DNA of 64,000 bases, taken from positions 47,893-111,892 of the forward strand of contig CALRLC020000006.1 of assembly GCA_943368425.1 (NCBI GenBank). The letters are read 5' to 3'. The DNA comes from Brevundimonas vancanneytii (GTDB lineage Bacteria; Bacteroidota; Bacteroidia; Chitinophagales; Chitinophagaceae). Numbering within the stretch: the stretch's first letter is position 1; each line of letters opens with the position of its first letter. A program made the position numbers and the translations under genes. Positions 29,781 to 61,805 of the stretch are shown here, piece by piece. Below the pieces are notes generated by a model. It made no database searches, was not told where the DNA came from, and was given only the letters and a program-made list of their open reading frames with translations.

Positions 29781-29862
29781 AGTGAATAGGAATAGTGAGT
29801 AGTGAATAGTGAGTAGTGAGTATTTGGTTTCTTACTCACGACTCACTATTCACTTCTCACTA
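29781..29862. repeat. AGTGAGT-family inverted-arm element, empty
   Basis: agtgaat/agtgagt arrays at 29781-29822; inverted tactcac-gactcac-tattcac-ttctcac-ta at 29833-29862. Confidence 0.8.
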
Positions 29863-30969: not shown

Positions 30970-31009
30970 CGATCAAACAGCATAAAAATTATAAGTAGAC
31001 GTATAACTT

Positions 31010-33826
31010 ATGGAATACAATTTCAGGGACATTGAAAAGAAATGGCAGAAAGAATGGACTGATACCCATGCCTATCAGGTAAAGAATGACAGCACTAAGC
31101 CTAAATATTATGTGCTGGATATGTTCCCTTATCCGAGTGGAGCTGGATTGCATGTTGGGCATCCGCTAGGTTATATTGCTTCGGATATCGTAAGCCGTTT
31201 CAAAAGGCTCAAAGGTTTCAATGTATTACACCCTATGGGTTATGATGCGTTTGGCTTACCTGCTGAACAATATGCATTGGAGCATGGTGTACATCCTGCA
31301 AAAAGTACCGCCCAGAATATTGATAATTTCAGAAAGCAGTTAGACAATATCGGATTCAGTTATGATTGGAATCGTGAAGTACGAACCTGTGATGCTGATT
31401 ACTATAAATGGACCCAATGGATATTCCTTCAACTCTTCAATAGTTTCTACGATCGTCACCAACAAAAAGCTGTGGCGATTAGTGAACTGATCAACTCTTT
31501 TGAGCAAGAAGGAAACACAAAACATATTTGTCCGGGTAACCCTACGCTGGAATTTACTGCTGAAGCATGGAAAGCTTTTTCTGAAAAGGAACAGCAAGAT
31601 ATTCTGATGGATTATCGTCTTGCTTTTTGTGGTTATGGTGAAGTGAACTGGTGTGAGGCCTTGGGAACTGTATTGGCCAATGATGAAGTAGTGAATGGTG
31701 TGAGTGAACGTGGCGGGCATCCTGTTGTAAAAAAGAAATTGCGTCAGTGGTATTTACGTATCACTGAATATGCTGATCGTTTGTTAAGCGGACTTGATAC
31801 CATCGAGTTCAGCGAAGCGATGAAAGAAATGCAGACGAATTGGATCGGTAAATCTTCGGGAGCGGAGATTAGCTTCAAGCTTCAGGCTGCAAGCCACAAG
31901 CAAGAGCAATCAAGCTTGCAGCTTGAAGCTAGCAGCTTGGAGCTCCTCGTCTACACTACCCGTCCCGATACCATTTTCGGTGTAGACTTTATGGTGGTGG
32001 CGCCGGAGCATGAATTGATCGAAAAAATTACAACAGCTGAGCAGAAAGAAGCTGTAGAGGCATATATCACTTATGTAAAAAGCAGGAGCGATAGAGAGCG
32101 TCAGGCCGAGAAAAAAAATACGGGATGTTTTACAGGAGCTTATGCCATCAATCCTTTTGATGGAAGAGAGATTCCGGTATGGATATCAGAATATGTACTC
32201 GCAGGTTATGGAACGGGAGCTATCATGGCCGTTCCTTGTGGCGATGAAAGGGATTTCAAATTTGCTAAGCATTTCAATATTCCTGTCACCAATATCATAG
32301 GTGATGCATTTGATGGAACAGATGCCAATCCAACCAAAGATGCAGTGCTGAGCAATAGCGGATTTTTGAATGGCATGAAAATGCGCAATGCCATTGAAGT
32401 GGTGATTGAGAAGTTAGAAGCCATGGGTATCGGCAAACGCAAAGTGAATTACAAAATGCGTGATGCGGCTTTCAGTCGCCAGCGTTATTGGGGTGAACCA
32501 TTTCCGATCGTTTGGCAGGATGGTATTGCGTATCCATTGGATGAGAAAGAATTACCACTCTTATTACCCGATGTAGAGAGTTATGGTCCGGGGCCGGATG
32601 GAGAAGGGCCACTAGCCAATTTGAGTGATTGGAAGAGCACAACTTACAATGGTAAACCCGCAGTGCGTGAAACCAATACCATGCCCGGTTATGCAGGTAG
32701 CAGTTGGTATTTCCTGCGTTATATGGATCCTAACAATGAACAGGCATTTTGCGATAAGAAGGTCAGTGATTATTGGAATCAGGTAGATCTGTATATCGGT
32801 GGAACAGAACATGCGGTTGGACATTTATTGTACAGCCGTATGTGGACCAAAGCCTTGTATGACTTAGGTTATATAGGATTTGATGAACCGTTTAGGAAAT
32901 TGTTGAATCAGGGGATGATACAAGGGAGTAGTAGGTTTGTGTATCGAAAAAAAGGGACGCAGACTTTTGTTTCCTCAAACCTAAAGCAAGATATAGAAGT
33001 AGATGAGTTACACGTTGATGTCAACATTGTGGATGGTGTTGAATTAGATATTGACGCTTTCAAGAAATGGCGCAATGGTGAATATGCCAATGCTGAATTT
33101 ATTTTAGAAGATGGCAAATACATCTGCGGCGTTGAAGTCGAAAAAATGTCCAAATCCAAATTCAACACTGTAAATCCGGATACATTGGTGGAGAAGTTTG
33201 GTGCCGATACTTTCCGCATGTACGAAATGTTCCTCGGTCCTGTTGATCAAAGCAAACCATGGGATACCAAGGGTATTGAAGGGGTACATCGTTTCCTGAA
33301 AAAATTATGGCGTTTATTTTTTGATGAGAACAAAGGAAAGATCTGGACGGATGAACAACCCACTGCGGAAGAATTGAAAGTATTACATCGCACCATCAAA
33401 AAAATTGATGACGATACAGAACGTTATAGTTTCAATACAGCTGTGAGCAGCTTTATGATTTGTGTGAATGAATTGAGTGATCTGAAGTGTCATAAAAAAC
33501 AAATCCTTCAGGATGTATTGATTCTCTTGACTCCCTATGCGCCACATATTGCAGCGGAACTCTGGAAGCAATTGGGTAATGAAGGATCTGTACTGGATGC
33601 AAGCTTCCCGACATTCAATGCTGCGTATGTTACTGAGACAAGCAAAGAATATCCCATCAGTATCAATGGTAAAACACGTACCAATATTTCCATTGCATTG
33701 GATGCTACGGAAGATCAGGTAAAAGAGATCGTTCTCTCCAATGAGTTAGTACAAAAATGGATGGAAGGAAAGCCTTTGAAGAAACTCATCTTCGTAAAAG
33801 GAAAAATGATCAATGTAGTCATATAA
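31010..33826 (+). CDS. leuS: Leucyl-tRNA synthetase
   Basis: MFPYPSGAGLHVGH, TTRPDT editing motif and KMSKS. Confidence 0.98.
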   Translation: MEYNFRDIEKKWQKEWTDTHAYQVKNDSTKPKYYVLDMFPYPSGAGLHVGHPLGYIASDIVSRFKRLKGFNVLHPMGYDAFGLPAEQYALEHGVHPAKSTAQNIDNFRKQLDNIGFSYDWNREVRTCDADYYKWTQWIFLQLFNSFYDRHQQKAVAISELINSFEQEGNTKHICPGNPTLEFTAEAWKAFSEKEQQDILMDYRLAFCGYGEVNWCEALGTVLANDEVVNGVSERGGHPVVKKKLRQWYLRITEYADRLLSGLDTIEFSEAMKEMQTNWIGKSSGAEISFKLQAASHKQEQSSLQLEASSLELLVYTTRPDTIFGVDFMVVAPEHELIEKITTAEQKEAVEAYITYVKSRSDRERQAEKKNTGCFTGAYAINPFDGREIPVWISEYVLAGYGTGAIMAVPCGDERDFKFAKHFNIPVTNIIGDAFDGTDANPTKDAVLSNSGFLNGMKMRNAIEVVIEKLEAMGIGKRKVNYKMRDAAFSRQRYWGEPFPIVWQDGIAYPLDEKELPLLLPDVESYGPGPDGEGPLANLSDWKSTTYNGKPAVRETNTMPGYAGSSWYFLRYMDPNNEQAFCDKKVSDYWNQVDLYIGGTEHAVGHLLYSRMWTKALYDLGYIGFDEPFRKLLNQGMIQGSSRFVYRKKGTQTFVSSNLKQDIEVDELHVDVNIVDGVELDIDAFKKWRNGEYANAEFILEDGKYICGVEVEKMSKSKFNTVNPDTLVEKFGADTFRMYEMFLGPVDQSKPWDTKGIEGVHRFLKKLWRLFFDENKGKIWTDEQPTAEELKVLHRTIKKIDDDTERYSFNTAVSSFMICVNELSDLKCHKKQILQDVLILLTPYAPHIAAELWKQLGNEGSVLDASFPTFNAAYVTETSKEYPISINGKTRTNISIALDATEDQVKEIVLSNELVQKWMEGKPLKKLIFVKGKMINVVI
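31871..31944. repeat. AAGCTRC-family inverted-arm element lying in frame inside leuS
   Basis: aagcttc-aggctgc-aagccac-aagc ... gcttgca-gcttgaa-gctagca-gcttg; encodes SFKLQAASHKQEQSSLQLEASSLEL. Confidence 0.8.
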
Positions 33827-40991: not shown

Positions 40992-41073
40992 TAGTGAGTA
41001 GTGAATAGTCAGTAGTGAGTAAGATATTTTATTGTTCTTAGTTTTACTCACTACTGACTATTCGCTATCTCAC
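40992..41073. repeat. AGTGAGT-family inverted-arm element, empty
   Basis: tagtgag-tagtgaa-tagtcag-tagtgag-ta, spacer containing agatattt, inverted tactcac-tactgac-tattcgc-tatctcac. Confidence 0.8.
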
Positions 41074-41092
41074 AATTTACTACCTTTACTCC

Positions 41093-42127
41093 ATGTCCAA
41101 TCCCAACTTGAACAGAGATCCGATGAACCTTAGTGCAGCTGAAAAGGAGTTTGAGAATGCCATTCGTCCGGCAGAGATCAATGACTTTTCTGGACAGCCA
41201 CAATTGATCGAGAATCTGGTCATCTTTATAAAGGCTGCCAAGCTGCGAGGGGAAGCATTGGATCATATTTTGTTTCATGGTCCACCGGGATTGGGTAAGA
41301 CCACACTCAGCAGAATTGTTGCGAATGAATTGGGGGTGAATATCAAAGAAACATCTGGACCTGTGATTGAGAAGCCGGGTGATCTGGCTGGACTACTCAC
41401 CAATTTGCAACCCAATGATGTGTTGTTCATTGATGAAATACATCGTTTAAGTACAGTAGTGGAAGAGTATTTGTATGCTGCGATGGAAGATTTCAAGATC
41501 GATATCATGATTGATTCCGGTCCGAATGCCAGAAGTGTACAGATCAATTTGAATCCATTTACATTGGTGGGAGCAACTACAAGAAGTGGTTTGTTGACTG
41601 CACCTTTATTGTCGCGTTTTGGGATCAAATCAAGGTTAGAATATTATCACGCAGAGACGCTGAAGAAAATCATTGAACGAAGCGCTGCGATTTTGAATAC
41701 AGGGATTCTTTCGGATGCGGCTTTTGAAATAGCAAGAAGAAGTCGGGGAACACCACGTATTGCCAATGGCTTATTGCGTCGTGTACGAGATTTTGCACAG
41801 GTATTGAATGATGGTAAGATTGATTTAGGAATAACTCAACATGCATTAAAAGCATTGAATGTAGATGAACATGGGTTAGATGAAATGGATAATCGTATTT
41901 TATCAGCCATTATCGATAAATTCAAGGGAGGGCCTGTTGGACTTACTACCATCGCAACTGCAGTGGGTGAAGAAGCGGGAACATTGGAAGAAGTGTATGA
42001 ACCCTTTTTGATACAAGAAGGATTTTTGCAACGAACACCACGCGGAAGAGAAGTGACTTTAAAAGCGTATCAACATTTGGGAAAAGATCGTCCTTCGATG
42101 GGGAATCAATCTGAGTTGTTTAGATAG
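41093..42127 (+). CDS. ruvB: Holliday junction branch migration ATPase RuvB
   Basis: [24 protein letters not shown] and RTPRGR motifs. Confidence 0.97.
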
Positions 42128-42156
42128 ATTGCCACTGAAAGCACAGAGATATACTG

Positions 42157-42191
42157 AAACAGGAGTTCAGATTTAATCTGAACTCCTGTTT
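42157..42191. terminator. Bidirectional intrinsic terminator between ruvB and hemL
   Basis: Near-perfect palindrome aaacaggagttcagatt-t-aatctgaactcctgttt. Confidence 0.8.
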
Positions 42192-42194
42192 TAT

Positions 42195-43484
42195 TTATAA
42201 TATTTCTGAGAGGCTTTCTTTAGTTGCTTGTATAGTTGCATCAAGATCTTCATAAGAGAGTGCATTGTTGAGGAACCAACTTTCAAATGCGGAAGGAGGT
42301 AAGTAGATCCCTTTTTTCAGCATGGCATGAAAGTATTTGTTGAACAATGCATTGTTGGCTGCAGATGCAGATGCAAAATCGGTAACAGCTTTTTCACTGA
42401 AATGAACACTGATCATGGATCCAAATCTGTTGATCACAAATGGAGTTCCGCTTTCTGTGAGTACTTTATTCAAGCCCTCGTGTAAGTAAGCGGTTTTATC
42501 ATTCAGTTCTTGATAGAGCGAAGGATTGCTTTTTAATTCATTCAACAAAGTATACCCGGCGATCATCGCAATAGGGTTACCACTCAAAGTTCCAGCTTGG
42601 TATACATTTCCAAGTGGTGCGATTTTTTCCATGATAGCACGTTTGCCACCAAAAGCACCTACCGGCATACCCGCACCGATCACTTTTCCATAAGTAATAA
42701 GGTCTGCATCTACATTCAATACTTGTTGAGCACCCCCTTGTGCTAAACGGAATCCAGTCATTACTTCATCAAAAATGAATACAATGCCTTCTTCATCGCA
42801 AATGGTTCTGATACCTTCAAGAAATCCTGGTGCAGGTAATATACAACCCATGTTTCCTGCAACGGGTTCAACGATGATGGCAGCGATTTCATTCTTATGG
42901 ATAGACACTAATTTTTTGACTGCTGTTAGATCATTGTAAGCGCAAGTCAAAGTATCGGTAGAAACACCCCCTGTGATTCCTGGTACTGTTTGAATATCAA
43001 AAGTGGCCAATCCACTCCCTGCTTTTACAAGAAATGCATCGGCATGACCATGATAACAGCCTTCGAATTTGATGAATTTATTTCTGCCTGTATATCCTCT
43101 AGCCAAACGTAAGGCACTCATGCAAGCTTCGGTACCACTGCTCACCATTCTGATCAGGTCAACATTGGGTGCCATGCTTTTAATGAGTTCTGCCATTTCA
43201 ATTTCCAACTCTGTAGGTGCACCATACGACGTAGATAAAACTGCTTTTTCCTGAATGGCTTTTACTACCGGCTCATAGGCATGCCCCAAAATCATAGGTC
43301 CCCATGAAGCGATATAATCGATATAACGATTGCCATCAGCATCATAGAGATAAGCACCTTTAGCTTTTTCAATAAAGATGGGCGTACCACCTACACTTTT
43401 AAAAGCTCTTACCGGAGAGTTTACGCCTCCGGGGATAGATTGTTGTGCGCGTTGGAAGAGTGCAATACTTTTTGATGTTTCCAT
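42195..43484 (-). CDS. hemL: Glutamate-1-semialdehyde 2,1-aminomutase
   Basis: [33 protein letters not shown] and GTLSGNP motifs. Confidence 0.97.
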
Positions 43485-43489
43485 ATTTT

Positions 43490-43958
43490 AGTGAGTAGTC
43501 AGTAGTGAGTAGTTAGTTATCTGAGCTAATCATTACTGAGATCATTTTAAAATTTTCTATTATCAAATCTTTTATGCTATCTAGTTTTTCAAGTGTGATA
43601 TATTTAAGATCTACCGCTAATCCAATTGCTGTATCAACCTCAATTAGTGATCCTCTTGCAATTTCAAAAAACCTCTTTCTTTCAAGATTTGATTTGCGAG
43701 AACATCCTTCTGCAATATTCAAATGAACAGAAGATGATGCTCTTCTGATTTGTTGAACTAAAGCAAATCTTTCATCAGTAGGGAAATTTCTTGATAGCTT
43801 ATAGCATTCAAGTACCAAATCCCTAGATTTTAAAAAGACTGATAGTTTTGTATGAGCAAGCTGTAAAAACATAGTTGTCAAAACTAGTCTCTAACAGCGA
43901 TGAAGATTTACGTATTTCCCGCAAAACTAAACTCACTACTCACTATTGACTACTCACT
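43490..43958 (-). mobile_element. Putative cargo-loaded element: AGTGAGT-family inverted arms enclosing a four-helix-bundle gene
   Basis: Arms at 43490-43517 and 43931-43958 match at 26/28 nt as inverted repeats and enclose the gene at 43513-43872. Mobility is inferred, not shown. Confidence 0.55.
43513..43872 (-). CDS. Four-helix-bundle protein (23S rRNA IVS protein/Avd-like family)
   Basis: FPTDERFALVQQIRRASSSVHLNIAEG and RFFEIARGSLIEV motifs. The ATG at 43872 is 6 nt after TAGTTTTG. Confidence 0.9.
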   Translation of the reverse strand: MFLQLAHTKLSVFLKSRDLVLECYKLSRNFPTDERFALVQQIRRASSSVHLNIAEGCSRKSNLERKRFFEIARGSLIEVDTAIGLAVDLKYITLEKLDSIKDLIIENFKMISVMISSDN

Positions 43959-44927
43959 AATCAGCCTGATCGCATCTTTAGCGAAATAGGTTGCAATCAA
44001 ATCGGCGCCTGCTCGTTTAATTGATGTAAGGCTCTCAATGATCGCTTTTTCTTCATTCAGCCAACCCATTTTTGATGCTGCTTTGATCATTGCATATTCA
44101 CCGCTTACCTGATAAGCGCTTACCGGAACTTCTACTGCATTCTTCACTTCGCGGATGATATCCAGATAAGCCATGGCAGGTTTTACCATGACGATATCAG
44201 CTCCTTCTTCAATATCCATTAACGTTTCTTTGATGGCTTCTGTTCGGTTGGCGAAATCCATTTGATACGTTTTTTTATCGCCGAATCCGGGAGCGCTATC
44301 CAATGCATCTCTGAATGGACCATAGAAACATGAGGCATACTTGGCGCTATAACTCATGATACCCACTTTCGTGAATCCACTATCTTCTAAACCGTTTCTT
44401 ATTGCGCCAATTCTACCATCCATCATGTCACTGGGGGCAACAAAATCGCATCCTGCTTCTGCATGACTGATACTCATCTTTACCAAAGCTTCTACTGTTT
44501 CATCATTCACGATCTCGCCGTCTTTTACGATGCCATCGTGTCCGTAAGAAGAGAATGGATCTAAGGCAACATCAGTCATTACTATTATTTCCGGAACAGC
44601 ATCTTTGATCGCTTTAATACTTCTTTGCATCAATCCGTTTTTGTTCCATGCTTCTTTGCCTGTATTATCTTTCAGTTCATCTTTACATTTGATGAACAGC
44701 AGTACACAACGAATACCCATCTCCCACAATACTTTCACTTCTTTTACAGTAAAATCTAAAGACATCCTGTAATACCCCGGCATCGAAGCGATCTCCGTTT
44801 TCACATTTTCTCCTTCATCAATAAATAACGGAGCAATAAAATCAGCCGGCTTCAATATCGTTTCAGCCACCATTGCACGGATAGCATGTGATTGGCGGAG
44901 GATGCGGTTGCGTCGTTGGAGGTACAT
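43950..44927 (-). CDS. hemB: Porphobilinogen synthase
   Basis: DVALDPFSSYGHDG, PSDMMDGR, MSYSAKYAS, MVKP and YQVSGEY motifs. The Cys-cluster Zn site is absent, suggesting a Mg/K-type enzyme. Confidence 0.97.
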   Translation of the reverse strand: MYLQRRNRILRQSHAIRAMVAETILKPADFIAPLFIDEGENVKTEIASMPGYYRMSLDFTVKEVKVLWEMGIRCVLLFIKCKDELKDNTGKEAWNKNGLMQRSIKAIKDAVPEIIVMTDVALDPFSSYGHDGIVKDGEIVNDETVEALVKMSISHAEAGCDFVAPSDMMDGRIGAIRNGLEDSGFTKVGIMSYSAKYASCFYGPFRDALDSAPGFGDKKTYQMDFANRTEAIKETLMDIEEGADIVMVKPAMAYLDIIREVKNAVEVPVSAYQVSGEYAMIKAASKMGWLNEEKAIIESLTSIKRAGADLIATYFAKDAIRLISE

Positions 44928-44932
44928 GAATC

Positions 44933-45415
44933 TTTGATTTTTTGATCTTTGATTTCTTGATTTATTGTTTGGTCTGCTTGATTTTTAAATCAAACGTTTT
45001 ATTCGCGGCAGTAAATATGGCTGTTAGTTCATTTGCTTCTGCTATTAATTGATCTATGATACTATTGGTACTAAGTTTTGTTGCCTTGATGATTTCTAGC
45101 CAATAATGTGACTCGTCGATTTCTTCCAGAACAATTTTTAATTTATGTGCAAAATCAGCTTGTGATTTTGATCTGTTTGTTGCACGATAATTAGCTCCTA
45201 CCGATCCTGAAGAACGTATCAATTGTTTCGCAATTTCAAAGCCAGCAGGTGTTTTCGGCAGACAATCACAAAATAATACAATATCAATATTGAACTGTTT
45301 TGTTCTGTCTTGTAAAGTTTTCCGATTCATTCTGTAAAATTATGCTAGATCACCTCGAACGATACGGAGCGTTTGTTATGAAATAAATCAAGAAATCAAA
45401 GATCAAAAAATCAAA
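44933..45415 (-). mobile_element. Putative cargo-loaded element: perfect 33-bp ATCAA-family inverted repeats enclosing a four-helix-bundle gene
   Basis: 44933-44965 is the exact reverse complement of 45383-45415 (ataaatcaagaaatcaaagatcaaaaaatcaaa). Confidence 0.6.
44962..45330 (-). CDS. Four-helix-bundle protein (23S rRNA IVS protein/Avd-like family)
   Basis: QLIRSSGSVGANYRA, FAHKLKIVLEEIDESHYWLE and EANELTAIF motifs. Confidence 0.9.
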   Translation of the reverse strand: MNRKTLQDRTKQFNIDIVLFCDCLPKTPAGFEIAKQLIRSSGSVGANYRATNRSKSQADFAHKLKIVLEEIDESHYWLEIIKATKLSTNSIIDQLIAEANELTAIFTAANKTFDLKIKQTKQ

Positions 45416-45416
45416 C

Positions 45417-46325
45417 TTATATCCATTCCTTTGGATGTAAGCAAGCTTGCCACAATTCCCATTCTTTTGAACCTTCAGTCGGTTGATGATTGTAATCAAA
45501 TCTTACTGTTGGCGGTAGACTCATCAGAATACTTTCAATTCTTCCATTGGTCTTTAGTCCAAATATAGTTCCACGATCATGCACCAGATTGAATTCTGTG
45601 TACCTGCCCCTGCGTATTTCCTGCCAATATTTATTCTCTGGAGTGAATTCGGTATGTTTTCTTTTCTCAACAATGGGAATATAGCTATCGATAAACGCAT
45701 AACCACAAGCTTTTGCAAATGCCATCCAGAATTGAACGTCTTTACTTTCATCCGGACGTTGGTAATCGTAAAAAATACCGCCAATGCCTCTTCTTTCTTT
45801 ATTACGATGCCAGTTCACAAAATATTCATCACATTCTTTTTTGAATGCCGGATAAAATGCAGGATCGAATGGATCACAAGCATTTTTATACGTCTGATGA
45901 AAGTGAATGGCATCTTCTTCAAATAGATAATAAGGCGTAAGATCAGTACCACCACCAAACCATCTGTCAATCACTTCTCCTTTTTCATCATACAACTCAA
46001 ACATGCGATAATTACAATGTACAGTAGGCACGAAGGGATTATAAGGATGAATCACTAGACTCAATCCACATGCAAACCAACTATGTCCATTGATCTTTAA
46101 TTGTGTTCGCATCAAGTCTGTAACCGGACCAAACACCACAGAAGTATTCACGCCTCCTTTTTCCAACACTGCACCATTGCCAATTACACGTGTGCGGCCG
46201 CCGCCACCTTCTTCTCGGTCCCATTTATCTTCCTGAAATCTAGCTTTTCCATCTACTTTCTCCAGTGCAGCGCAGATATCATCCTGCAGCTGATGAATAA
46301 AGGAGATCCATTGTTCTTTTATCAT
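45417..46325 (-). CDS. hemF: Oxygen-dependent coproporphyrinogen III oxidase
   Basis: PTVHCNYR, WFGGGTDLTP, RGIGGIFYD and RRGRYTEFNLVHDRGTIFGL motifs. Confidence 0.96.
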   Translation of the reverse strand: MIKEQWISFIHQLQDDICAALEKVDGKARFQEDKWDREEGGGGRTRVIGNGAVLEKGGVNTSVVFGPVTDLMRTQLKINGHSWFACGLSLVIHPYNPFVPTVHCNYRMFELYDEKGEVIDRWFGGGTDLTPYYLFEEDAIHFHQTYKNACDPFDPAFYPAFKKECDEYFVNWHRNKERRGIGGIFYDYQRPDESKDVQFWMAFAKACGYAFIDSYIPIVEKRKHTEFTPENKYWQEIRRGRYTEFNLVHDRGTIFGLKTNGRIESILMSLPPTVRFDYNHQPTEGSKEWELWQACLHPKEWI

Positions 46326-46336
46326 AAGTTCGTATT

Positions 46337-46407
46337 AGTGAGTAGTCAGTAGTGAGTAGTCAGTAGGAAAAAGATATTTATTCACTACTGACAATTCACT
46401 ACTCACT
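46337..46407. repeat. AGTGAGT-family inverted-arm element, empty (hemE/hemF junction)
   Basis: agtgagt-agtcagt-agtgagt-agtcagt, spacer ggaaaaagatattt, inverted attcact-actgaca-attcact-actcact. Confidence 0.8.
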
Positions 46408-47432
46408 TAATGTCGAAATTCTTTCACCGCATCTACAAATGCCCTTGCATGATCAACAGGAACATTTGGAAGGATGCCATGTCCAAGGTTGGCGATATGT
46501 CTACCCGGACCAAATGCACGCAGCATGTCTTTTACTTCTTTTTGAATCACAGGGATCGGTGATAATAATTTCGCAGGATCAAAATTCCCTTGCAGTGTAA
46601 CATGATTACCTGCGAACTGACGAGCCAATTCAGGCTTGATACACCAATCAATTCCTAAACCATGAGCGCCAGTAGCGGCCATACTATCCAAGCTATGCCA
46701 TGCACCTTTTGCAAATACGATCGTGGGTACTTCATCTTTCAATGCCGCAACGATCTGACGCATATATTGTAATGACAGGTTTTCAAAATCATGCGGACTT
46801 AATAATCCACCCCAGCTATCAAAAATTTGAACCGTATCTGCACCTGCTTTCACTTGTGCTTTCAGGTAGGCGATTGTAGTATCAGTGATCATTTGTAATA
46901 ACTGGTGTGCCAGTTCAGGTTGTGTATAGCAGAATGCTTTTGCTTCATCAAAAGTTTTAGAACCTTTGCCCTGCACCATGTAACAAAGTAAGGTCCATGG
47001 CGCCCCGGCAAAGCCGATCAATGGAACTCTTCCGTTGAGTTCTTGTTTAATAAGTTTAATGGCATCCATCACATAGCCTAAAGTTTCATCAACATCCGGT
47101 ACACGAACGCGCGCCATGTCTTTATTGGTTTTTATTGGGTCCGGTAGAACAGGTCCTTTACTTTCGATCAACTGTACTTCCAGTCCCATTGCTTGTGGCA
47201 CTACCAGAATATCAGAAAACAAGATAGCAGCATCCACACCAACGATATCTATTGGTTGTAATGTGATTTCACATGCCAGTTCAGGTGTCTGACAACGTTC
47301 AAAGAATCCGTATTTCTCACGCAACACCATGTACTCAGGAAGGTATCGTCCGGCCTGACGCATCATCCACACAGGAGTTCTTTCAGTTGCTTCACCGCGA
47401 AGGGTTCGGAGGAGTAGGTCGTTTTTTAGCAT
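46407..47432 (-). CDS. hemE: Uroporphyrinogen decarboxylase
   Basis: [34 protein letters not shown] and NLGHGI motifs. Confidence 0.97.
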
Positions 47433-47441
47433 AGATTATAA

Positions 47442-47512
47442 AGTGAGTAGTGAGTAGTCAGTAGTCAGTAGGGAGAGATATTTACTCACTACTGACTATT
47501 CACTACTCACTA
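47442..47512. repeat. AGTGAGT-family inverted-arm element, empty (hemD/hemE junction)
   Basis: agtgagt-agtgagt-agtcagt-agtcagt, spacer gggagagatatt, inverted tactcac-tactgac-tattcac-tactcac-ta. Confidence 0.8.
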
Positions 47513-48210
47513 AAATGTTGAATCGCTTTCCTCACCAGTTCTTCTTTTCCTGGTGAGTGAGCTGTGATGATTGAATTGTTTGTATATTTTTTGATGGCTG
47601 CTTCAGTAGTAGTTCCTATGGCAAAGAATACTGTTGAAGTAGCGGCTTTATTTTGATTGAAAAAACTTTCTACTGCACTCGGACTAAAAAATATAATACC
47701 ATTATAAGTAGTATCCATTTTTTGATGGAGTGGGATCGTTTTGTATACGATGATCTCTTCAACACTGATACCTTCTTCTTTTAGTTTGGCAGGTAATTCA
47801 TCTCTTCGCTGATCACCACAGAAGAAGAACACTTCATCTAATTCATCATTGTCTGATAAAATGGTTTCTGCAAGTTCTGATGCATTGTTGCCAGTGCCAC
47901 TAATAGACTGTTCTCCAAAATAGTTGTGTATCAGTTCTTGTGTTGTATTACCCATACAATAAATATTCCATTCCGGCACTTGTTGGTCTAGCATGGTGAT
48001 TACACTTTCTACAGCATTCATGCTTGTAAATACAACCGTGGCATATTGCAAAGCGATTTGTTCAACCTCCTGTTGTGTATCAATGTCCTGAACAGGTTCT
48101 GTATCGATCAAAGGAATGATATCCAACTGAATGTTTTGTTCAGCGGCTTCCTGTATCAGTGTTTCTTTTACAGGTCTGGTAGATAATATTTTCTTTTTAC
48201 TTTCCTGCAT
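47503..48210 (-). CDS. hemD: Uroporphyrinogen-III synthase
   Basis: ILSTRP, VVFTSMNAVES, VYKT, FFSPSAVESF and FAIGTTT motifs; expected operon position. Confidence 0.88.
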   Translation of the reverse strand: MQESKKKILSTRPVKETLIQEAAEQNIQLDIIPLIDTEPVQDIDTQQEVEQIALQYATVVFTSMNAVESVITMLDQQVPEWNIYCMGNTTQELIHNYFGEQSISGTGNNASELAETILSDNDELDEVFFFCGDQRRDELPAKLKEEGISVEEIIVYKTIPLHQKMDTTYNGIIFFSPSAVESFFNQNKAATSTVFFAIGTTTEAAIKKYTNNSIITAHSPGKEELVRKAIQHFSE

Positions 48211-49162
48211 TTCTGATTTCCTGTATGATTTCTTCTGCACCCATCGCTAAGATTTCTTGTCCGGCTTCTGTGCCTATTGCAGCCCCAACGGAAATAGGTA
48301 CGTTAGTGCTGATATCAACTTTCTGACGACCATCAAGAGATACCACATTGCCCTGGAAAAAAATCTGATCACCCTGTATTTGTGCGAGTGCAGAAATAGG
48401 TGTAGCGCAACCGCCCATCAACTGACGTAAAAAATTTCTTTCTGCATGCGCACAGATCGCTGTTTCGTTATGGTGTAGTTGCTGACAGCTATTGAAGATT
48501 TCAGTTTCTCCTTCTCTGCACACAACCATCACGGCACCTTGTGCCGGAGCAGGTAACATCCAATCCAAATCAATTGCTTTTTCCGGACGAAGGTTGATTC
48601 TTTCAAGTCCTGCAGCTGCAAAGATGGCACCTTGCCAATTGCTTTCATCCAGTTTACGCAGTCGGGTATTGACGTTGCCACGTAAGTTATCAAACTGATG
48701 ATTGGGATAACGATTGAGCCATTGTGCTTTACGGCGAACGCTGCTGGTGGCGAATAGTCCATGGTCCATAGTCCATGGTCTATGGACCATGGACCATTCA
48801 CCATTCACATAACCCAGCGCTTCCGGTATATCCTCTTCCTTATAAACAAGAATGTCTTTGTATGATGCACGTTTTAATACTGCAGCTTCTTGTATGCCTT
48901 TAGCAAGTTGTGTAGGCACGTCTTTCATGGAGTGAACAGCAATATCAATTTTGTTACTGAGCAATGCAGCATCTAGCGTTTTAGTGAAGATACCCTGAAC
49001 ACCGATCTCATAAAGTGGTGTAACTAGATCAATATCTCCTTCACTTTTGATGTACACGAGTTCAGAAGCCACTCCTTTTTCTTTCAGGAGTTCTTGCACC
49101 CATGTGGCTTGCCACACGGCGAGCTGACTGTCGCGTGTTCCTATACGTACTACCTTGGTCAT
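48197..49162 (-). CDS. hemC: Hydroxymethylbilane synthase (carries a repeat-derived insertion)
   Basis: RIGTRDSQLAVWQA, DIAVHSMKD, TSSVRR, RGNVNTRL and GGCATP motifs. Confidence 0.96.
   Translation of the reverse strand: MTKVVRIGTRDSQLAVWQATWVQELLKEKGVASELVYIKSEGDIDLVTPLYEIGVQGIFTKTLDAALLSNKIDIAVHSMKDVPTQLAKGIQEAAVLKRASYKDILVYKEEDIPEALGYVNGEWSMVHRPWTMDHGLFATSSVRRKAQWLNRYPNHQFDNLRGNVNTRLRKLDESNWQGAIFAAAGLERINLRPEKAIDLDWMLPAPAQGAVMVVCREGETEIFNSCQQLHHNETAICAHAERNFLRQLMGGCATPISALAQIQGDQIFFQGNVVSLDGRQKVDISTNVPISVGAAIGTEAGQEILAMGAEEIIQEIRNAGK
48754..48808. repeat. ATRGTCY-family inverted-arm element lying in frame inside hemC
   Basis: atagtcc-atggtcc-atagtcc-atggtct-atggacc-atggacc-attcacc-attcac; encodes VNGEWSMVHRPWTMDHGL. 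Confidence 0.82.
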
Positions 49163-49170
49163 ATCTAGGT

Positions 49171-50379
49171 TTAATGACTGCTCGTCATGAAGTCGTTGAT
49201 GGCTTCAATGTAATAACAACCGGGCTGATGTCTGTTACGCATCTTAACGGCTACATTGTTCACCACTTTCTGAATGGCTTCTGTATTGATATCTTCTGAT
49301 GCTCTCCGTGAAGTTAAAAACAATCCACAGGAATGCATATCATGTAATTTTTGCTTCACCGCCTTTAAAATAGGAACATGACGGCGCTGATGATTCCATA
49401 GCACAAACTCATTCATGTGTTTGCATATGATGTTCATTGCTTTGGGTACTTCTGCTTTTCTTTTCTGCAGGGTTTGATCATTGATCTTGGACAGATCATC
49501 CACATTTGCCAGCACTACATTTTTTTGTTGTGCCAATGATGGATCAATATTATGAGGAATAGAAAGATCGATCAGGATCTTTTTAGTGTTTGCTTTCAAA
49601 TTCTTTGTAGTCACTACCGGCTGCTCTGCATTGGTTGCCACAATAATGATATCAGCACTGTTTATCTCATTCTCCAACTGATTCCAATCTGCACTTTCTA
49701 ACTGTAGGTTTTCGGCCAGTTCAGCTGCTTTTTCAGCAGTTCTGTTAATGAGTGTGATGTTTTTTGTATCTAAATAATCAACCAGATTCTTACAGGTATT
49801 TCTGCCGATCTTCCCTGTTCCGAGTAAGACGATCTTTTTATCAGCAGTCTCTGTCAATTGCTGGCGAATGAATTGAATGGCAGCAAAGGAAACAGAAATG
49901 GTACCACCACTCAATGCAGTTTCATTTTTGATCTGTTTGGACGATTGTAAAACAGTATTGAATAAACGTTCAATAAATGAGCCAATCATTCCTTTTTCTT
50001 TCGCAAATTTTATCGCGAGCTTCATCTGCCCAACGATCTCATAATCTCCCAGAATTTGAGAATCCAGTCCTGCGCCTACAGAAAAAATATGTTGTAAAGC
50101 TTCTTCGTCTTGTTTGATATAACAGCGTTGAACAAAATCAATCTTGCTTCCGATGGTCACTGCACACAATAAGTCAATTAAAGTATTCGAATCAGGTGCA
50201 ATGCCATAGATCTCTGTACGGTTACAGGTGCTCAACACAAACAATTCCTTGATGCCAGCTGCTTTAGCCCGTTGAAGAATAATGGTATATTGTTCCGGAT
50301 TGATCGCATAGTTACCACGAACAGCCGCATCGGTCTTTTTGTAGTTGATTCCTGCTATGAAAAATTGTCCTGTCTCCAT
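49171..50379 (-). CDS. hemA: Glutamyl-tRNA reductase
   Basis: LSTCNRTEIY, GLDSQILGDYEIVGQ, LLGTGKIG and IDLSIPHNI motifs. Confidence 0.96.
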   Translation of the reverse strand: METGQFFIAGINYKKTDAAVRGNYAINPEQYTIILQRAKAAGIKELFVLSTCNRTEIYGIAPDSNTLIDLLCAVTIGSKIDFVQRCYIKQDEEALQHIFSVGAGLDSQILGDYEIVGQMKLAIKFAKEKGMIGSFIERLFNTVLQSSKQIKNETALSGGTISVSFAAIQFIRQQLTETADKKIVLLGTGKIGRNTCKNLVDYLDTKNITLINRTAEKAAELAENLQLESADWNQLENEINSADIIIVATNAEQPVVTTKNLKANTKKILIDLSIPHNIDPSLAQQKNVVLANVDDLSKINDQTLQKRKAEVPKAMNIICKHMNEFVLWNHQRRHVPILKAVKQKLHDMHSCGLFLTSRRASEDINTEAIQKVVNNVAVKMRNRHQPGCYYIEAINDFMTSSH

Positions 50380-50419
50380 AAACTGCCACGATCCTTTTGG
50401 TCTCGCTCAAATAAGTACG

Positions 50420-50464
50420 CAAAGGTATCCTGCATGGTTTCTTTTAAAACATGACAAACGTCAT
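50420..50464 (-). promoter_or_regulatory. hemA promoter -7 box with an upstream palindrome
   Basis: TACCTTTG on the minus strand at 50420-50427; ATGAC-aaac-GTCAT at 50451-50464. Confidence 0.45.
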
Positions 50465-50622
50465 TACATTGTCATTTCTCTGTCAGTTTTCTGATAAGCG
50501 GTCTTTTACGGTGTTGAAATAAAACCCTTTTTGTTTTTGTTTCGTTCTTTTCTGCAAACAAATCTGTTAGAACTTTTAAGTAAGCGATTTGTTACTCTAA
50601 CTTTGCAAACTCAAATGTGATT

Positions 50623-51675
50623 ATGGCAACGAATGCGAAACGTGCACTCTTATTGATGAATCTTGGCTCACCTGATTCAACAGAAGTAAAAGATGTAAGA
50701 AAATACCTGAATCAGTTTTTAATGGATGGACGAGTGATTGATATCCCTTATATCGTAAGGGCTTTATTGGTTCGTGGTATCATCGTTCCTTTTCGTGCAC
50801 CTAAGTCTGCAGAGGCATACAGAAGCATTTGGACTGATGAGGGTTCCCCTTTGATCGTACTTACCAAACAATTAAAAGAGGCATTGCAACATGATATAGA
50901 AGAACCCATTGGTATTGCGATGCGCTATGGTACACCTTATCCTAAAGAAGCTTATGATGCATTGTTAAAAGAGCATCCTAATTTGGAAGAAGTGGTACTA
51001 CTACCGTTGTATCCACATTATGCGATGAGTAGTTATGAAACAGCAGTGGAATATGCAAAAGAGCAGCATAAAGAATATGGTTACACATTTAAGTTAAGCG
51101 TCATCAAACCTTTCTACGATGATGAAGCCTATATCAGTGCGTTGGCAGATTCCATCAGACCTTACACCGAACAAGAATATGATCATATTTTATTCAGCTA
51201 CCATGGTGTACCGCAAAGACATATTCGTAAAAGTGATATCACCGGTTGCCATTGTCTAAAAGTGGAGAACTGTTGTGAAGTGGCTTCTCCCGCACATAAA
51301 GAATGTTATCGTCATCAATTGGTAGTAACCACTAAACTGGTAGCTGAAAAATTAGGTATTCCAAAAGATAAATACAGTCTTTCCTTCCAATCAAGATTGG
51401 GTAGTGGATGGCTGCAACCCTTTACAGATAAGCGTTTGGAAGCTATGCCGGGTGAAGGCGTAAAGAGATTATTGGTGGCATGCCCGGCATTCATTAGCGA
51501 TTGTTTGGAAACCATTGAAGAAATAGGAGAGGAAGGAAAAGAAACTTTCCTTCATGCGGGTGGTGAATCATTCACATTGATCCCCTGTCTCAACGTACAC
51601 CCCGCATGGACTGCCACGATTAAGCAATGGATGGAGGAGATCAGAAGTGGGAAGGAGGAGATGATTTTGGCGTAA
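50623..51675 (+). CDS. hemH: Ferrochelatase
   Basis: LLMNLGSPDS, AMRYG, LPLYPHYA, FSYHG, FQSRLG and FISDCLETIEEI motifs; TAACTTTG box at 50598-50605. Confidence 0.96.
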   Translation: MATNAKRALLLMNLGSPDSTEVKDVRKYLNQFLMDGRVIDIPYIVRALLVRGIIVPFRAPKSAEAYRSIWTDEGSPLIVLTKQLKEALQHDIEEPIGIAMRYGTPYPKEAYDALLKEHPNLEEVVLLPLYPHYAMSSYETAVEYAKEQHKEYGYTFKLSVIKPFYDDEAYISALADSIRPYTEQEYDHILFSYHGVPQRHIRKSDITGCHCLKVENCCEVASPAHKECYRHQLVVTTKLVAEKLGIPKDKYSLSFQSRLGSGWLQPFTDKRLEAMPGEGVKRLLVACPAFISDCLETIEEIGEEGKETFLHAGGESFTLIPCLNVHPAWTATIKQWMEEIRSGKEEMILA

Positions 51676-56043: not shown

Positions 56044-56994
56044 ATGGCTACTAAGAAACCAGCCCCTAAGGCGGCAAAAAAACCGGCTCCAAAGGCGGCA
56101 CCAGCCAAGAAAACAGCTTCAAAACCAGCGCCTAAGAAGGCTGCTGCTAAACCTGCTCCTAAAAAAGCAGCGAAACCGGCACCTAAACCGGCAGCAAAAA
56201 AAGCGGCTCCTGCAAAGAAAGCAGTGGTGAAACCAGCGCCTGCAAAAAAAGCGGCTCCTGCTAAACCTGCTCCTAAGCCAGTAGCTAAAGCGCCTGTAAA
56301 AGCAGCAAAACCTGCACCGGCTCCGGCTCCTGTGAAAAAGGCAGCTGCACCAGCGAAGCCTGCTGCGAAAGCTCCTGTAAAGCCTGCAGCTCCCGCACCT
56401 GTTGCTAAGCCTGTATCAACGCCTTTACCTCCGATGAAAAAACCTGAACCTAAAGGGCCACCTGCTCCGCCTGTTAAACCAGTGCGTAAAGCACCAGAGC
56501 CGTTGAAAGAGGTAAAAGTTCCTAAGACTAGTACCAAAAGCAGCGTCCCTTATCAGCCCGGATATACACCATTAGAAAAAAGAGTAGAAACTGTGAGAAG
56601 CAACGAAACATTAGTAAAGTACAGTGATGCGGACTTAAATGAATTCCGCGAGTTAATCAATAAAAAACTGGAAGCAGCTAAAAAAGAGCTGACTTACCTG
56701 CAAGGTTTGATCACCCGTAAAGATGAAATGGGTGGTGATAACGACGATGCTCGTTACATGACCATGGAAGACGGCAGTATGAGTATGGAAAGAGAGCAGC
56801 TCAGCCAAATGGCCAGCCGTCAGATTACTTATATTGATCACCTTGAAAAAGCATTGATGCGTATCGAAAACAAAACCTACGGTATTTGCCGTGTTACAGG
56901 TAAGTTGATCGATAAAGCTCGCTTACGCGCGGTGCCGCATGCTACATTGAGTTTGGAAGCAAAACTGGGTTTAGTGAAGCCTAGTGCTGAATAG
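56044..56994 (+). CDS. DksA/TraR-family protein with a long Lys/Ala/Pro-rich N-terminal extension
   Basis: C-terminal KYSDADLNEFR...ALMRIENKTYGICRVTGKLIDKARLRAVPHATLS; about 160 aa of KPAP/KKAA repeats at the N-terminus. Confidence 0.88.
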   Translation: MATKKPAPKAAKKPAPKAAPAKKTASKPAPKKAAAKPAPKKAAKPAPKPAAKKAAPAKKAVVKPAPAKKAAPAKPAPKPVAKAPVKAAKPAPAPAPVKKAAAPAKPAAKAPVKPAAPAPVAKPVSTPLPPMKKPEPKGPPAPPVKPVRKAPEPLKEVKVPKTSTKSSVPYQPGYTPLEKRVETVRSNETLVKYSDADLNEFRELINKKLEAAKKELTYLQGLITRKDEMGGDNDDARYMTMEDGSMSMEREQLSQMASRQITYIDHLEKALMRIENKTYGICRVTGKLIDKARLRAVPHATLSLEAKLGLVKPSAE

Positions 56995-57116
56995 TGAGTA
57001 GTGAGTAGTCAGTAGTGAGTTTGCACTATTTAAAAATAAAAGAGAAGCCCTCAATTTTACTTGAGGGCTTCTCTTATTATGTTACTCACTATTGACTACT
57101 CACTATTCACTATTCA
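56990..57116. repeat. AGTGAGT-family inverted arms enclosing a terminator
   Basis: Left arm 56990-57020, right arm 57083-57116. Confidence 0.8.
57040..57075. terminator. Bidirectional intrinsic terminator between the dksA-like and msbA-like genes
   Basis: 15-bp stem aagagaagccctcaa/ttgagggcttctctt with a 6-nt loop. Confidence 0.85.
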
Positions 57117-58998: not shown

Positions 58999-59373
58999 AT
59001 GGAAGAAGGAAAACGTCAGCGTCAGGTAGCGGGAGCCATTCAGGAGGAAATGAATGATATTTTCAGGAGACTGAATCTTTCCATGCTCGATGGAGGAATG
59101 GTGTCAATATCCTCTGTTAAAGTCACCCCCGATCTGTTGGAAGCCAGAATTTATCTCAGCTTGTTTCAGGTAAAAGATGCAAAAGCTACGATGAAAACTA
59201 TCGAAAGCCGCGCATGGGAAATCAAAAAAGAACTCGCTGATAAAATGAAACATCAACTCCGCAGAATACCCGTTCTTCATTTCTATCTAGATGATACTTT
59301 GGATTATGTGTTCAAGATGGAAGAAATCTTTAAGAATATTAGTGAGGAGAAGAAAGGGGAAGAGAGTGAGTAA
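58999..59373 (+). CDS. rbfA: Ribosome-binding factor A
   Basis: RQRQVAGAIQEE, VKVTPDLLEARIYLS and RRIPVLHFYLDDTLDY motifs. Confidence 0.93.
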   Translation: MEEGKRQRQVAGAIQEEMNDIFRRLNLSMLDGGMVSISSVKVTPDLLEARIYLSLFQVKDAKATMKTIESRAWEIKKELADKMKHQLRRIPVLHFYLDDTLDYVFKMEEIFKNISEEKKGEESE

Positions 59374-59437
59374 TGAATAGTGAGTAGTCAGTAGTGAGTG
59401 ATTTTTATACTCACTACTGACTATTCACTACTCACTC
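59365..59437. repeat. AGTGAGT-family inverted-arm element, empty
   Basis: agtgagt-aatgaat-agtgagt-agtcagt-agtgagt, a 9-nt spacer, then actcact-actgact-attcact-actcact. Confidence 0.85.
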
Positions 59438-61672: not shown

Positions 61673-61805
61673 ACTGAGTAGTGAGTAGTCAGTAGTGGGT
61701 AGGGTATAAATTGTGAATGAGCATGGTAATAGGTGGTGGCGTATATGAGATTAGGTAAAAAATATTGACTATTCACTACTCACTACTCACCATTGACAAT
61801 TCACT
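61673..61805. repeat. AGTGAGT-family inverted arms with a roughly 60-nt spacer
   Basis: Left actgagt-agtgagt-agtcagt-agtgggt; right attgact-attcact-actcact-actcacc-attgaca-attcact, running into TATATTTG (61805-61812). Confidence 0.8.

Follow-up and report, generated by a model that had tools for sequence, protein, structure and literature searches.

Intervening sequences (IVSs) in ribosomal RNA (rRNA) have been a curiosity since 1990, and their origin, their mechanism of mobility and the function of their open reading frame (ORF) are unexplained. The 23S rRNA IVS of Coxiella burnetii has a 28-bp stem, spans 428–444 nt, contains an S23p ORF and is cut by RNase III (PMC4990558). Heptamer simple sequence repeats were described in cyanobacteria, Beggiatoaceae, Geobacter and Xanthomonas, with no associated gene family named (PMC4692102, PMC4679880, PMC2700814). 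The GGGAATC arrays of Xanthomonas show a stop-codon bias, consist of about four units, form convergent pairs able to fold into stem-loops, and are intergenic and mostly transcribed (PMC4692102). Genes of the PF05635 family, the family of the IVS protein, were noted inside cas operons and read as cas-associated (PMC3936711). We analyzed a 64,000-nt stretch of DNA (hereafter the window, to which coordinates without a contig name refer) from a Chitinophagaceae genome assembled as Brevundimonas vancanneytii (GCA_943368425.1, contig CALRLC020000006.1), in which a PF05635 gene bracketed by inverted heptamer arrays occupies the junction between hemB and hemL. On balance, this 473-nt insert is probably a cassette designed like the ORF-bearing 23S rRNA IVSs, located in an mRNA operon. 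No description of such a gene-in-heptamer-hairpin unit was found in the searchable literature.

An earlier note on this DNA, made from the sequence alone, had already compared the insert with an IVS. Its comparison stands with regard to architecture, and homology now agrees with it, as the cargo gene belongs to PF05635. The name itself does not carry over: the cassette is a variant of the IVS kind and is not filed as an IVS proper, because it lies outside the rRNA location that defines these elements.

The genes of the minus strand follow the order hemF (45417-46325), a 122-aa ORF (44962-45330), hemB, the 119-aa cargo ORF and hemL. The insert (43488-43960) and its two host genes comprise the following features:

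43930-43960, minus strand: 5′ arm (RNA sense), AGTGAGT/AGTCAAT heptamer array, contains the hemB stop codon TAG
43873-43929, minus strand: leader from the 5′ arm to the cargo ATG, with two TAGTTTTG boxes (43922-43929 and 43879-43886) and the motif GCGGGAAATACGTAA
43513-43872, minus strand: cargo gene, 119-aa four-helix-bundle protein, PF05635/TIGR02436
43488-43518, minus strand: 3′ arm (RNA sense), ACTCACT-type array, contains the cargo stop codon TAA
43950-44927, minus strand: hemB, porphobilinogen synthase, upstream host gene (PF00490, E 7e-144)
42195-43484, minus strand: hemL, glutamate-1-semialdehyde aminomutase, downstream host gene (PF00202, E 3e-78)

The arms, inverted arrays of about four AGTGAGT-type heptamers around the PF05635 gene, are 31 nt each, form 29/31 pairs (94% complementary) and are separated by 411 nt. 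The hemB stop codon (43950-43952) lies inside the upstream arm and the cargo stop codon (43513-43515) inside the downstream arm. The final two codons of hemB together with its stop (AGT GAG TAG) are arm sequence, and the protein ends in ...LISE here versus ...LINQ in a related genome (G022). The ATG of hemL (43482-43484) follows the 31-nt stem by 3 nt and its 28-nt core by 5 nt, and the second TAGTTTTG box lies 6 nt upstream of the cargo ATG (43870-43872). These readings bear out the earlier note, which had given 28-nt arms matching at 26/28 (the core within the 31-nt arms), the same positions for the two stop codons, the hemL ATG and the TAGTTTTG boxes, and seven other AGTGAGT pairs in the window with no gene inside. 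When the minus-strand RNA was folded, the 31-bp closing stem was present in both the minimum free energy and the centroid structure (-136.9 kcal/mol, z = -4.96), and 0 of 100 shuffled sequences folded as well. No rRNA or other Rfam family was detected in 41000-51000, where only sub-threshold look-alikes of miRNA precursors fell on hairpins.

The cargo was identified as a '23S rRNA intervening-sequence protein' by PF05635 (E 1e-32, 113 bits versus a cut-off of 33.8) and as a 'four helix bundle protein' by TIGR02436 (105 bits versus 24), and it matched the structure 2GSC (Xanthomonas campestris XCC0516, E 5e-18) in the PDB. An AlphaFold model built from 29 relatives was a four-helix bundle (pLDDT 90.5) that superimposed on 2GSC and 2RLD with a TM score of 0.82-0.87 and a root-mean-square deviation of 1.2-2.0; its TM score to Avd, a protein of diversity-generating retroelements (DGRs; 4DWL, 8UB7), was 0.72-0.77. 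The motif R..S...N..E (PMC3936711) was found in the cargo, and its isoelectric point (pI) is 9.0. The ratio of nonsynonymous to synonymous substitution rates (dN/dS) against the two closest relatives was 0.14-0.21, which indicates that the protein is maintained by purifying selection. The cut-offs of the Avd models were not reached (NF033474, 23.5 bits versus 80; PF22296, 22.5 bits versus 40), and a profile search up to E 10 returned only PF05635 and a weak bAvd match, with no HUH/Y1 transposase. The protein is not known to have catalytic activity. A relationship to HEPN domains was considered, as the subfamily has an R-x5-H in helix 2, and no HEPN model matched up to E 10.

The bracketed arrangement is not unique to the hemB-hemL junction. 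The genome (G000; its cassettes are designated E1, E2 and so on) contains nine PF05635 genes, and two of these are interrupted by internal stops. Clear inverted tandem-heptamer arms were present at seven of the nine and degenerate arms at the remaining two. A different unit was used at each gene (AGTGAGT, TTTGATT, GGGTACT, TGGCTGT, AAAGTCA, ATGTCAG and TTTTGAA), and six of the paralogues are mutually only 16-36% identical. The window contains one further cassette and several hairpins of the AGTGAGT family:

44933-45415, minus strand: second cassette, between hemF and hemB, with a 122-aa PF05635 gene (44962-45330) and perfect inverted TTTGATT-type arms of at least 31 nt (fold z = -6.3)
46337-46407, no strand assigned: AGTGAGT hairpin without a gene, upstream of hemF; the window has seven such empty hairpins

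The other six gene-less AGTGAGT inverted pairs are located at 29794-29847, 40993-41052, 47442-47511, 56993-57104, 59365-59436 and 61680-61784. AGTGAGT occurs 37 times in the window versus 5.9 expected (largest shuffle 11).

We further examined the linkage of gene and arms in relatives by scanning one genome per species, which yielded 80 loci with 53-92% identity to the cargo, nearly all in Chitinophagaceae and the closest in Sediminibacterium. An arm score of at least 14 (about 9 for shuffled flanks) was obtained at 63 of the 80. All 63 armed loci had a GTGAGT-type 5′ arm and an ACTCAC-type 3′ arm with the same polarity, and the unit variants AGTGAGT, GGTGAGT, TGTGAGT, AATGAGT and CGTGAGT changed jointly in both arms. 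Pairing between the two arms of one locus averaged 17.9, versus 13.2 for permuted partners (14.7 in the largest of 5000 permutations). To judge from these alignments, the arms stay complementary while their sequence drifts. A cargo stably present among unrelated flanks across the family would have spoken against the reading in the earlier note; 63 of the 80 relatives instead kept inverted, co-varying arms of one type. Of ten less similar PF05635 genes in the order (28-44% identity), nine were armed, with other units, and E6-like genes kept GATGTC-type arms in 5/5 genomes. Sequence-specific recognition would be favored by these data, because the heptamer type is conserved at a protein divergence at which a merely pairing sequence should drift.

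Pseudogenes were frequent among the cassette genes. For example, the hemB-hemL cassette of locus L058 (1501-1851) stops after 53 codons, and internal stops occurred in many other genomes; the arms persisted around such genes.

One trivial explanation is that two half-hairpins were juxtaposed by chance around an ordinary small gene. Heptamer arrays are indeed very common here: 512 tandem tracts of period 7 were detected genome-wide, versus 39 of period 6 and 21 of period 8. A 31-nt match at 94%, the bracket at 7/9 paralogues (degenerate at two) and at 63/80 relatives against the shuffle level, and the co-variation of the arms already refute chance, whose probability we regard as practically nil.

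The abundance of arrays was also compared with the presence of the gene. When arrays of three GTSART units were counted in 41 relatives, this genome had 312, G022 had 178, G028 69, G027 10, G034 3 and two others 1 each, and none were present in the other 34 genomes, including complete congeners of 3.2-3.7 Mb; a control pattern gave at most 2 matches. Among 151 Chitinophagaceae genomes (135 genera), those with an E1-like gene divided 35/8 between at least five arrays and fewer, and those without it 20/88 (odds ratio (OR) 19, p = 6.5e-13). Gene and arrays therefore co-occur.

Such enrichment would also be expected if the four-helix-bundle protein were a host-domesticated nucleic-acid-binding regulator, with the arms as its autoregulatory operator and some 130 gene-less hairpins behind stop codons as targets through which mRNA stability or translation termination is controlled. 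Purifying selection on the protein, its basic pI, the match of its fold to Avd, a pentamer that binds RNA and reverse transcriptase (RT), and the stop codons in or beside the arms agree with a regulon. However, most genomes of the genus have 0 arrays and 0 genes, and such patchiness among congeners is unlike a core regulator. Pseudogenised copies are common, arrays persist without the gene, and the cross-association of genes and arrays is not specific. We regard a regulator as distinctly improbable.

The gene-less hairpins themselves were found at characteristic positions. About 130 short-loop heptamer hairpins without a gene (133 in the positional analysis) were detected in the genome and belonged to some 40 unit families, the AGTGAGT family and its close variants accounting for only about a fifth of the heptamer tracts. 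The median distance of the hairpin start was 2 nt after the neighboring stop codon, versus 47 nt from the neighboring start. For the 133 hairpins, 117 of 147 adjacent stops lay within -10 to +15 nt of the stem base, and hairpins were somewhat enriched between convergent genes (29% versus 17% of spacers). Some hairpins were nested within other hairpins.

Four hairpins were located inside ORFs, and the two in the window were confirmed to be in frame. An AAGCTNC-type hairpin (31870-31937) is read within leucyl-tRNA synthetase (LeuRS; ORF 31007-33823, plus strand; peptide ISFKLQAASHKQEQSSLQLEASSL), and a second (48753-48809) is read within HemC (ORF 48200-49204, minus strand), where the peptide YVNGEWSMVHRPWTMDHGLF precedes ATSSVRR. 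In a sister genome (G041), the LeuRS site holds a different array of near-equal length (71 nt here versus 68 nt in G041) and the HemC site a 57-nt stretch.

Loops were not restricted to PF05635 genes. At G000 C2:442037-442443, single AAGCT-type inverted arms enclose an ORF of about 95 aa that does not encode a four-helix bundle (CBM-like by eye); thus, other cargo can occupy a loop. In some hairpin or cassette loops (56993-57104; G000 C6:41350-41950; G041 C1:863129 region), a GC-rich stem with T's behind it, resembling a terminator, was observed between the 5′ arm and the cargo, and the two sister genomes had differing terminator-like sequences at an equal relative place. A YjbR-like gene, tadA and sodA were rejected as arm-bracketed genes; they lie between two complete local hairpins or near-palindromic AAGCT arrays and lack single long-range arms.

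The cassettes were found in many different contexts. The 73 loci with both neighbors resolved represented 29 different junctions, and among the 171 pairs of cassettes whose proteins are at least 70% identical, 115 had no neighbor family in common. The hemB-cassette-hemL arrangement was also observed in six other genomes. A single ancient insertion at this junction was considered and rejected: in the protein tree, the window cargo groups with two near relatives and with an S. goheungense cassette located after hemL (100/98 support), other hemB-hemL cassettes each pair with cassettes from other contexts, and the well-supported branches require at least two origins. S. goheungense DSM 28323 has 13 PF05635 matches. 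Gene and arms are passed on and relocated as one unit.

Occupancy of the hemB-hemL junction differed even within the genus. The synteny comparison proposed in the earlier note, a search for relatives with an empty junction, was informative: of the genomes of the same GTDB genus that contain hemB, G019 has an empty spacer of 12 nt, G022 a 77-nt spacer with an unrelated palindrome, and G017 a 144-nt spacer with a GTCATCCCGAG-type hairpin. All three lack the cassette, which is present at loci L013 and L014. In G017, palindromes of the form GTCATCCCGAGCG...CTCGGGATGAC occur at both the hemB-hemL and hemF-hemB junctions (L003:1351-1494 and L003:2473-2602), with no PF05635 gene and no GTGAGT arrays, and represent a different hairpin family at the same sites. 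The second cassette, at hemF-hemB, was present in the window and in L013, and G041 had an empty ATGTCAG-type hairpin instead.

G041, the genome of locus L014, is about 87% identical to G000 in aligned DNA and allowed a site-by-site comparison. Five cassette sites were common to both (the cassettes of G041 are designated F1, F2 and so on):

E6 and F6: protein identity 98%, arms of the same family with a different number of units
E1 and F2: protein identity 91%, arms of the same family
E3 and F5: protein identity 60%, arms related
E8 and F1: protein identity 55%, arms related
E4 and F4: protein identity 56%, arms unrelated, cassettes in opposite orientation

The last junction has TGGCTGT-type arms in G000 (C15:44520-45190) and GGTGTTA-type arms in G041 (C1:2900467-2900781). 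Mapping between the two genomes covered 42 hairpin sites, of which 15 were conserved and 14 held a hairpin of another heptamer family, while the rest held a heptamer array without a clear hairpin (5), other sequence (7) or nothing (1). Hairpin sites persist while their content turns over, and in close relatives junctions alternate among empty, hairpin-only, loaded and differently loaded states. Site persistence and nested hairpins both fit a tendency of new elements to settle where a hairpin is already present.

The same behavior could be explained if the hairpins were independent structures like repetitive extragenic palindromic (REP) sequences, stabilizing or terminating mRNA 3′ ends, and the four-helix-bundle gene were a separate selfish gene that lands in their loops, the one place where insertion is harmless; the arms would then not be part of the element. 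In agreement with this possibility, the gene-less hairpins begin just past stop codons, as heptamer arrays do in Xanthomonas (PMC4692102), loops can contain terminator-like hairpins and once an ORF of another kind, hairpins are nested in hairpins, sites outlast their hairpin families, and 20 of 108 genomes have GTSART arrays and no E1-like gene. On the other hand, GTGAGT-type arms were present at 63 of 63 armed loci in 29 contexts, although this family makes up only about a fifth of the heptamer tracts here, and E6-like genes kept their own arm type in 5/5 genomes. Such linkage is unexpected from random landing unless the gene homes to its own kind of hairpin, which is again a cognate relation. 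We therefore think capture of this kind quite unlikely.

With regard to expression, 64 of 71 cassettes related to the cargo were co-oriented with both neighbors, and the 5′ array began within -12 to +15 nt of the upstream stop codon in 60 of 68. A consensus scan revealed no convincing terminator between hemB, cargo and hemL; one weak candidate, of 7 bp, fell within the cargo ORF, and of all terminator-like sites in the region scanned, the strongest (42155-42193, 18 pairs) was located just past the end of hemL. The earlier note had given the cargo its own promoter. This is not a family trait: TAnnTTTG, the Bacteroidetes -7 box to which the two leader boxes correspond, was found upstream in 5 of 78 relatives, versus 6.4 in shuffles, and occurs only in the three genomes closest to this one. 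That the cargo is transcribed by read-through from the operon would be the simplest reading, because most cassettes are co-oriented and no convincing terminator interrupts hemB-cargo-hemL.

If the insert is an IVS-like cassette, it would be transcribed by read-through from the hem promoter, and the arms would close a 31-bp duplex in this transcript, which should be long enough for RNase III. A duplex of 31 bp is more than two helical turns. One rnc (RNase III) gene was present in the genome. Cleavage, or mere sequestration, would uncouple the selfish cargo from hemB and hemL, and the operon would thereby accommodate the insert just as an IVS is accommodated in rRNA. The cargo protein, which is basic and probably pentameric, would most likely bind its own kind of heptamer array.

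Pairing of the arms could instead act in DNA, with the arrays forming cruciforms, hairpins in single-stranded DNA at the replication fork, or substrates for recombination, through which a cassette is inverted, exchanged or deleted, and with the RNA stem as a by-product. The sense RNA shows no G·U bias, E4 and F4 lie in opposite orientation at one junction, fixed junctions exchange entire cassettes while keeping the outermost arm units (E8/F1), and the number of units changes rapidly (E6/F6), all of which would agree with a device in DNA. Silent sites point the same way. Third-position identity to L013 and L014 was 87% and 83% for the cargo ORF, versus 76% and 70% for hemB and 73% and 67% for hemL, and the corresponding synonymous divergence (dS) was 0.21 and 0.32 for the cargo ORF, 0.49 and 0.77 for hemB, and 0.57 and 0.81 for hemL. 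The arm and leader were the best-conserved part of the locus (97% and 93%). This difference fits recent exchange; the cassette is either constrained at the nucleotide level or younger (coalescing more recently) than the host genes. In contrast, a purely inverting DNA element would not preserve the observed co-orientation with neighbors, RNA processing is known for the rRNA relatives, and E4 and F4, only 56% identical and with unrelated arms, represent replacement and not a simple flip. Overall, an exclusively DNA-level device appears unlikely.

Several observations weigh against the IVS-like cassette and its cognate arrays. Stem mismatches in the sense RNA were of the G·U type in 23 cases and of the A·C type in 32 (p = 0.28), most of them stemming from variant units out of register; without a G·U excess, they do not point to selection on the RNA, and the relevant pairing could be that of the DNA. 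A movement enzyme, whether transposase, integrase or partner RT, was not found, and the cassette itself has no transposase. No direct repeat flanks the arms, and filled and empty junctions differ without duplicated bases, leaving no target-site duplication. The sole RT of the genome (C4:116039-116935) is on another contig, far from any cassette, and no DGR template or variable repeats adjoin the cargo. E3 and E4 lack single long-range arms; each of these cassettes lies between two complete local hairpins instead. The genomes with arrays and no E1-like gene (20/108) belong here as well, as does G022, which has 178 GTGAGT-type arrays and no close cargo relative, in an assembly that is 89% complete, comprises 550 contigs and breaks at these repeats. 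Finally, E6-like genes also predicted GTSART arrays (OR 7.8), and E1-like genes did not predict GATGKNW arrays (OR 1.4). The pattern CAGATGN x3 was too narrow, as E6-like genes elsewhere carry GATGTCT-type arms, and a widened pattern gave weak support for proliferation (OR 4.4, p = 0.07 for at least five arrays). Protein subfamilies are thus linked to their own arrays with only partial specificity.

The sole RT was identified as that of a type VI retron (PADLOC, E 9e-74). In its region (C4:114031-117517), the RT is preceded by an HTH gene and followed by a REase-like partner of 343 aa; the region is probably a defence island and is unrelated to the cassettes.

A broader, tentative and rather doubtful proposal is that PF05635 proteins belong together with inverted heptamer arrays in a single genetic system, comparable to REP sequences and their associated tyrosine transposases (RAYTs) and based on a wholly different protein. 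Each subfamily would recognize its own array and promote the spread, replacement or maintenance of like hairpins, which would settle at existing hairpins or stop codons. Loaded cassettes would be the masters and the hundreds of gene-less hairpins their derivatives, and the 23S rRNA IVSs would be copies that landed in the tips of rRNA helices. If so, this would also account for the excess of heptamer repeats that has long been noted in the genomes of bacteria.

Irrespective of this proposal, the hem locus offers an IVS module in an ordinary operon, with loaded, empty, hairpin-only and replaced junctions that can be compared among close relatives. Our data point to a widespread gene-plus-hairpin element, because gene and arms recur together at many junctions in related bacteria. 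PF05635 is a candidate protein family for stop-codon-associated heptamer arrays; it has solved structures, and its relative Avd works on RNA together with an RT. Should the arms prove to be sites of RNase III cleavage, such hairpins, in their hundreds, would constitute a layer of operon processing that is absent from standard annotation. The cassette view also suggests what may be a simpler explanation of the location of PF05635 genes in cas operons.

The cassette was also compared with other mobile or repeated elements. It differs from miniature inverted-repeat transposable elements and insertion sequences in having neither a target-site duplication nor a transposase. DGR Avd has the same fold and belongs to the same superfamily, as the weak PF22296 and NF033474 matches indicate, but the cassette has no adjacent RT and no template or variable repeats. 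Integron gene cassettes are likewise small, apparently promoterless single-gene units that are co-oriented and rely on upstream transcription, are bounded by hairpin-forming imperfect inverted repeats and can be exchanged at fixed sites; in contrast to them, the cassettes described here have no integrase and no attI/attC, have arms on both sides, and are scattered singly through operons instead of being arrayed.

REP sequences, their hairpin-forming doublets (REPINs) and RAYTs share more features with this system. In both, a single-copy gene is flanked by inverted short repeats of which many further copies form hairpins between genes, and these hairpins lie just downstream of stop codons. A pairing of each gene subfamily with its own repeat family, as in REP/RAYT systems, may exist here too: arm type tracks the protein subfamily and the genome-level co-occurrence is strong (OR 19), but the cross test was not specific and G022 has arrays without the gene. 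However, the cassette protein is a 119-aa four-helix bundle and not an HUH/Y1 (IS200/IS605-like) transposase, and its repeats are tandem heptamer arrays, whereas REP sequences are fixed palindromes of 20-40 nt that carry a GTAG/CGTC tag. With the Xanthomonas arrays, both the gene-less hairpins (117/147) and the cassettes (60/68) share convergent tandem heptamers of about four units at or over stop codons; the arrays described here differ in that they bracket PF05635 genes. The PF05635 structure 2GSC comes from Xanthomonas campestris, a species studied in the heptamer-array papers.

The closest counterpart remains the 23S rRNA IVS of Coxiella burnetii (helix 45) and Leptospira (PMC4990558). It sits in an rRNA helix (9, 25 or 45), whereas the cassette lies between protein-coding genes of an mRNA operon, with arms that overlap the host stop codon, abut the start codon and consist of plain tandem heptamers common to about 130 dispersed hairpins; RNase III excision was shown for the rRNA element and is proposed here for the cassette. 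In all other respects compared, the two are alike: an S23p/PF05635 ORF in the loop, a length of 428-444 nt in the rRNA element and 473 nt in the cassette, a stem of about 28-31 bp formed by inverted repeats at the ends (around a loop of about 410 nt in the cassette), sense orientation in the host transcript, sporadic occurrence among close relatives, and the existence of gene-less versions.

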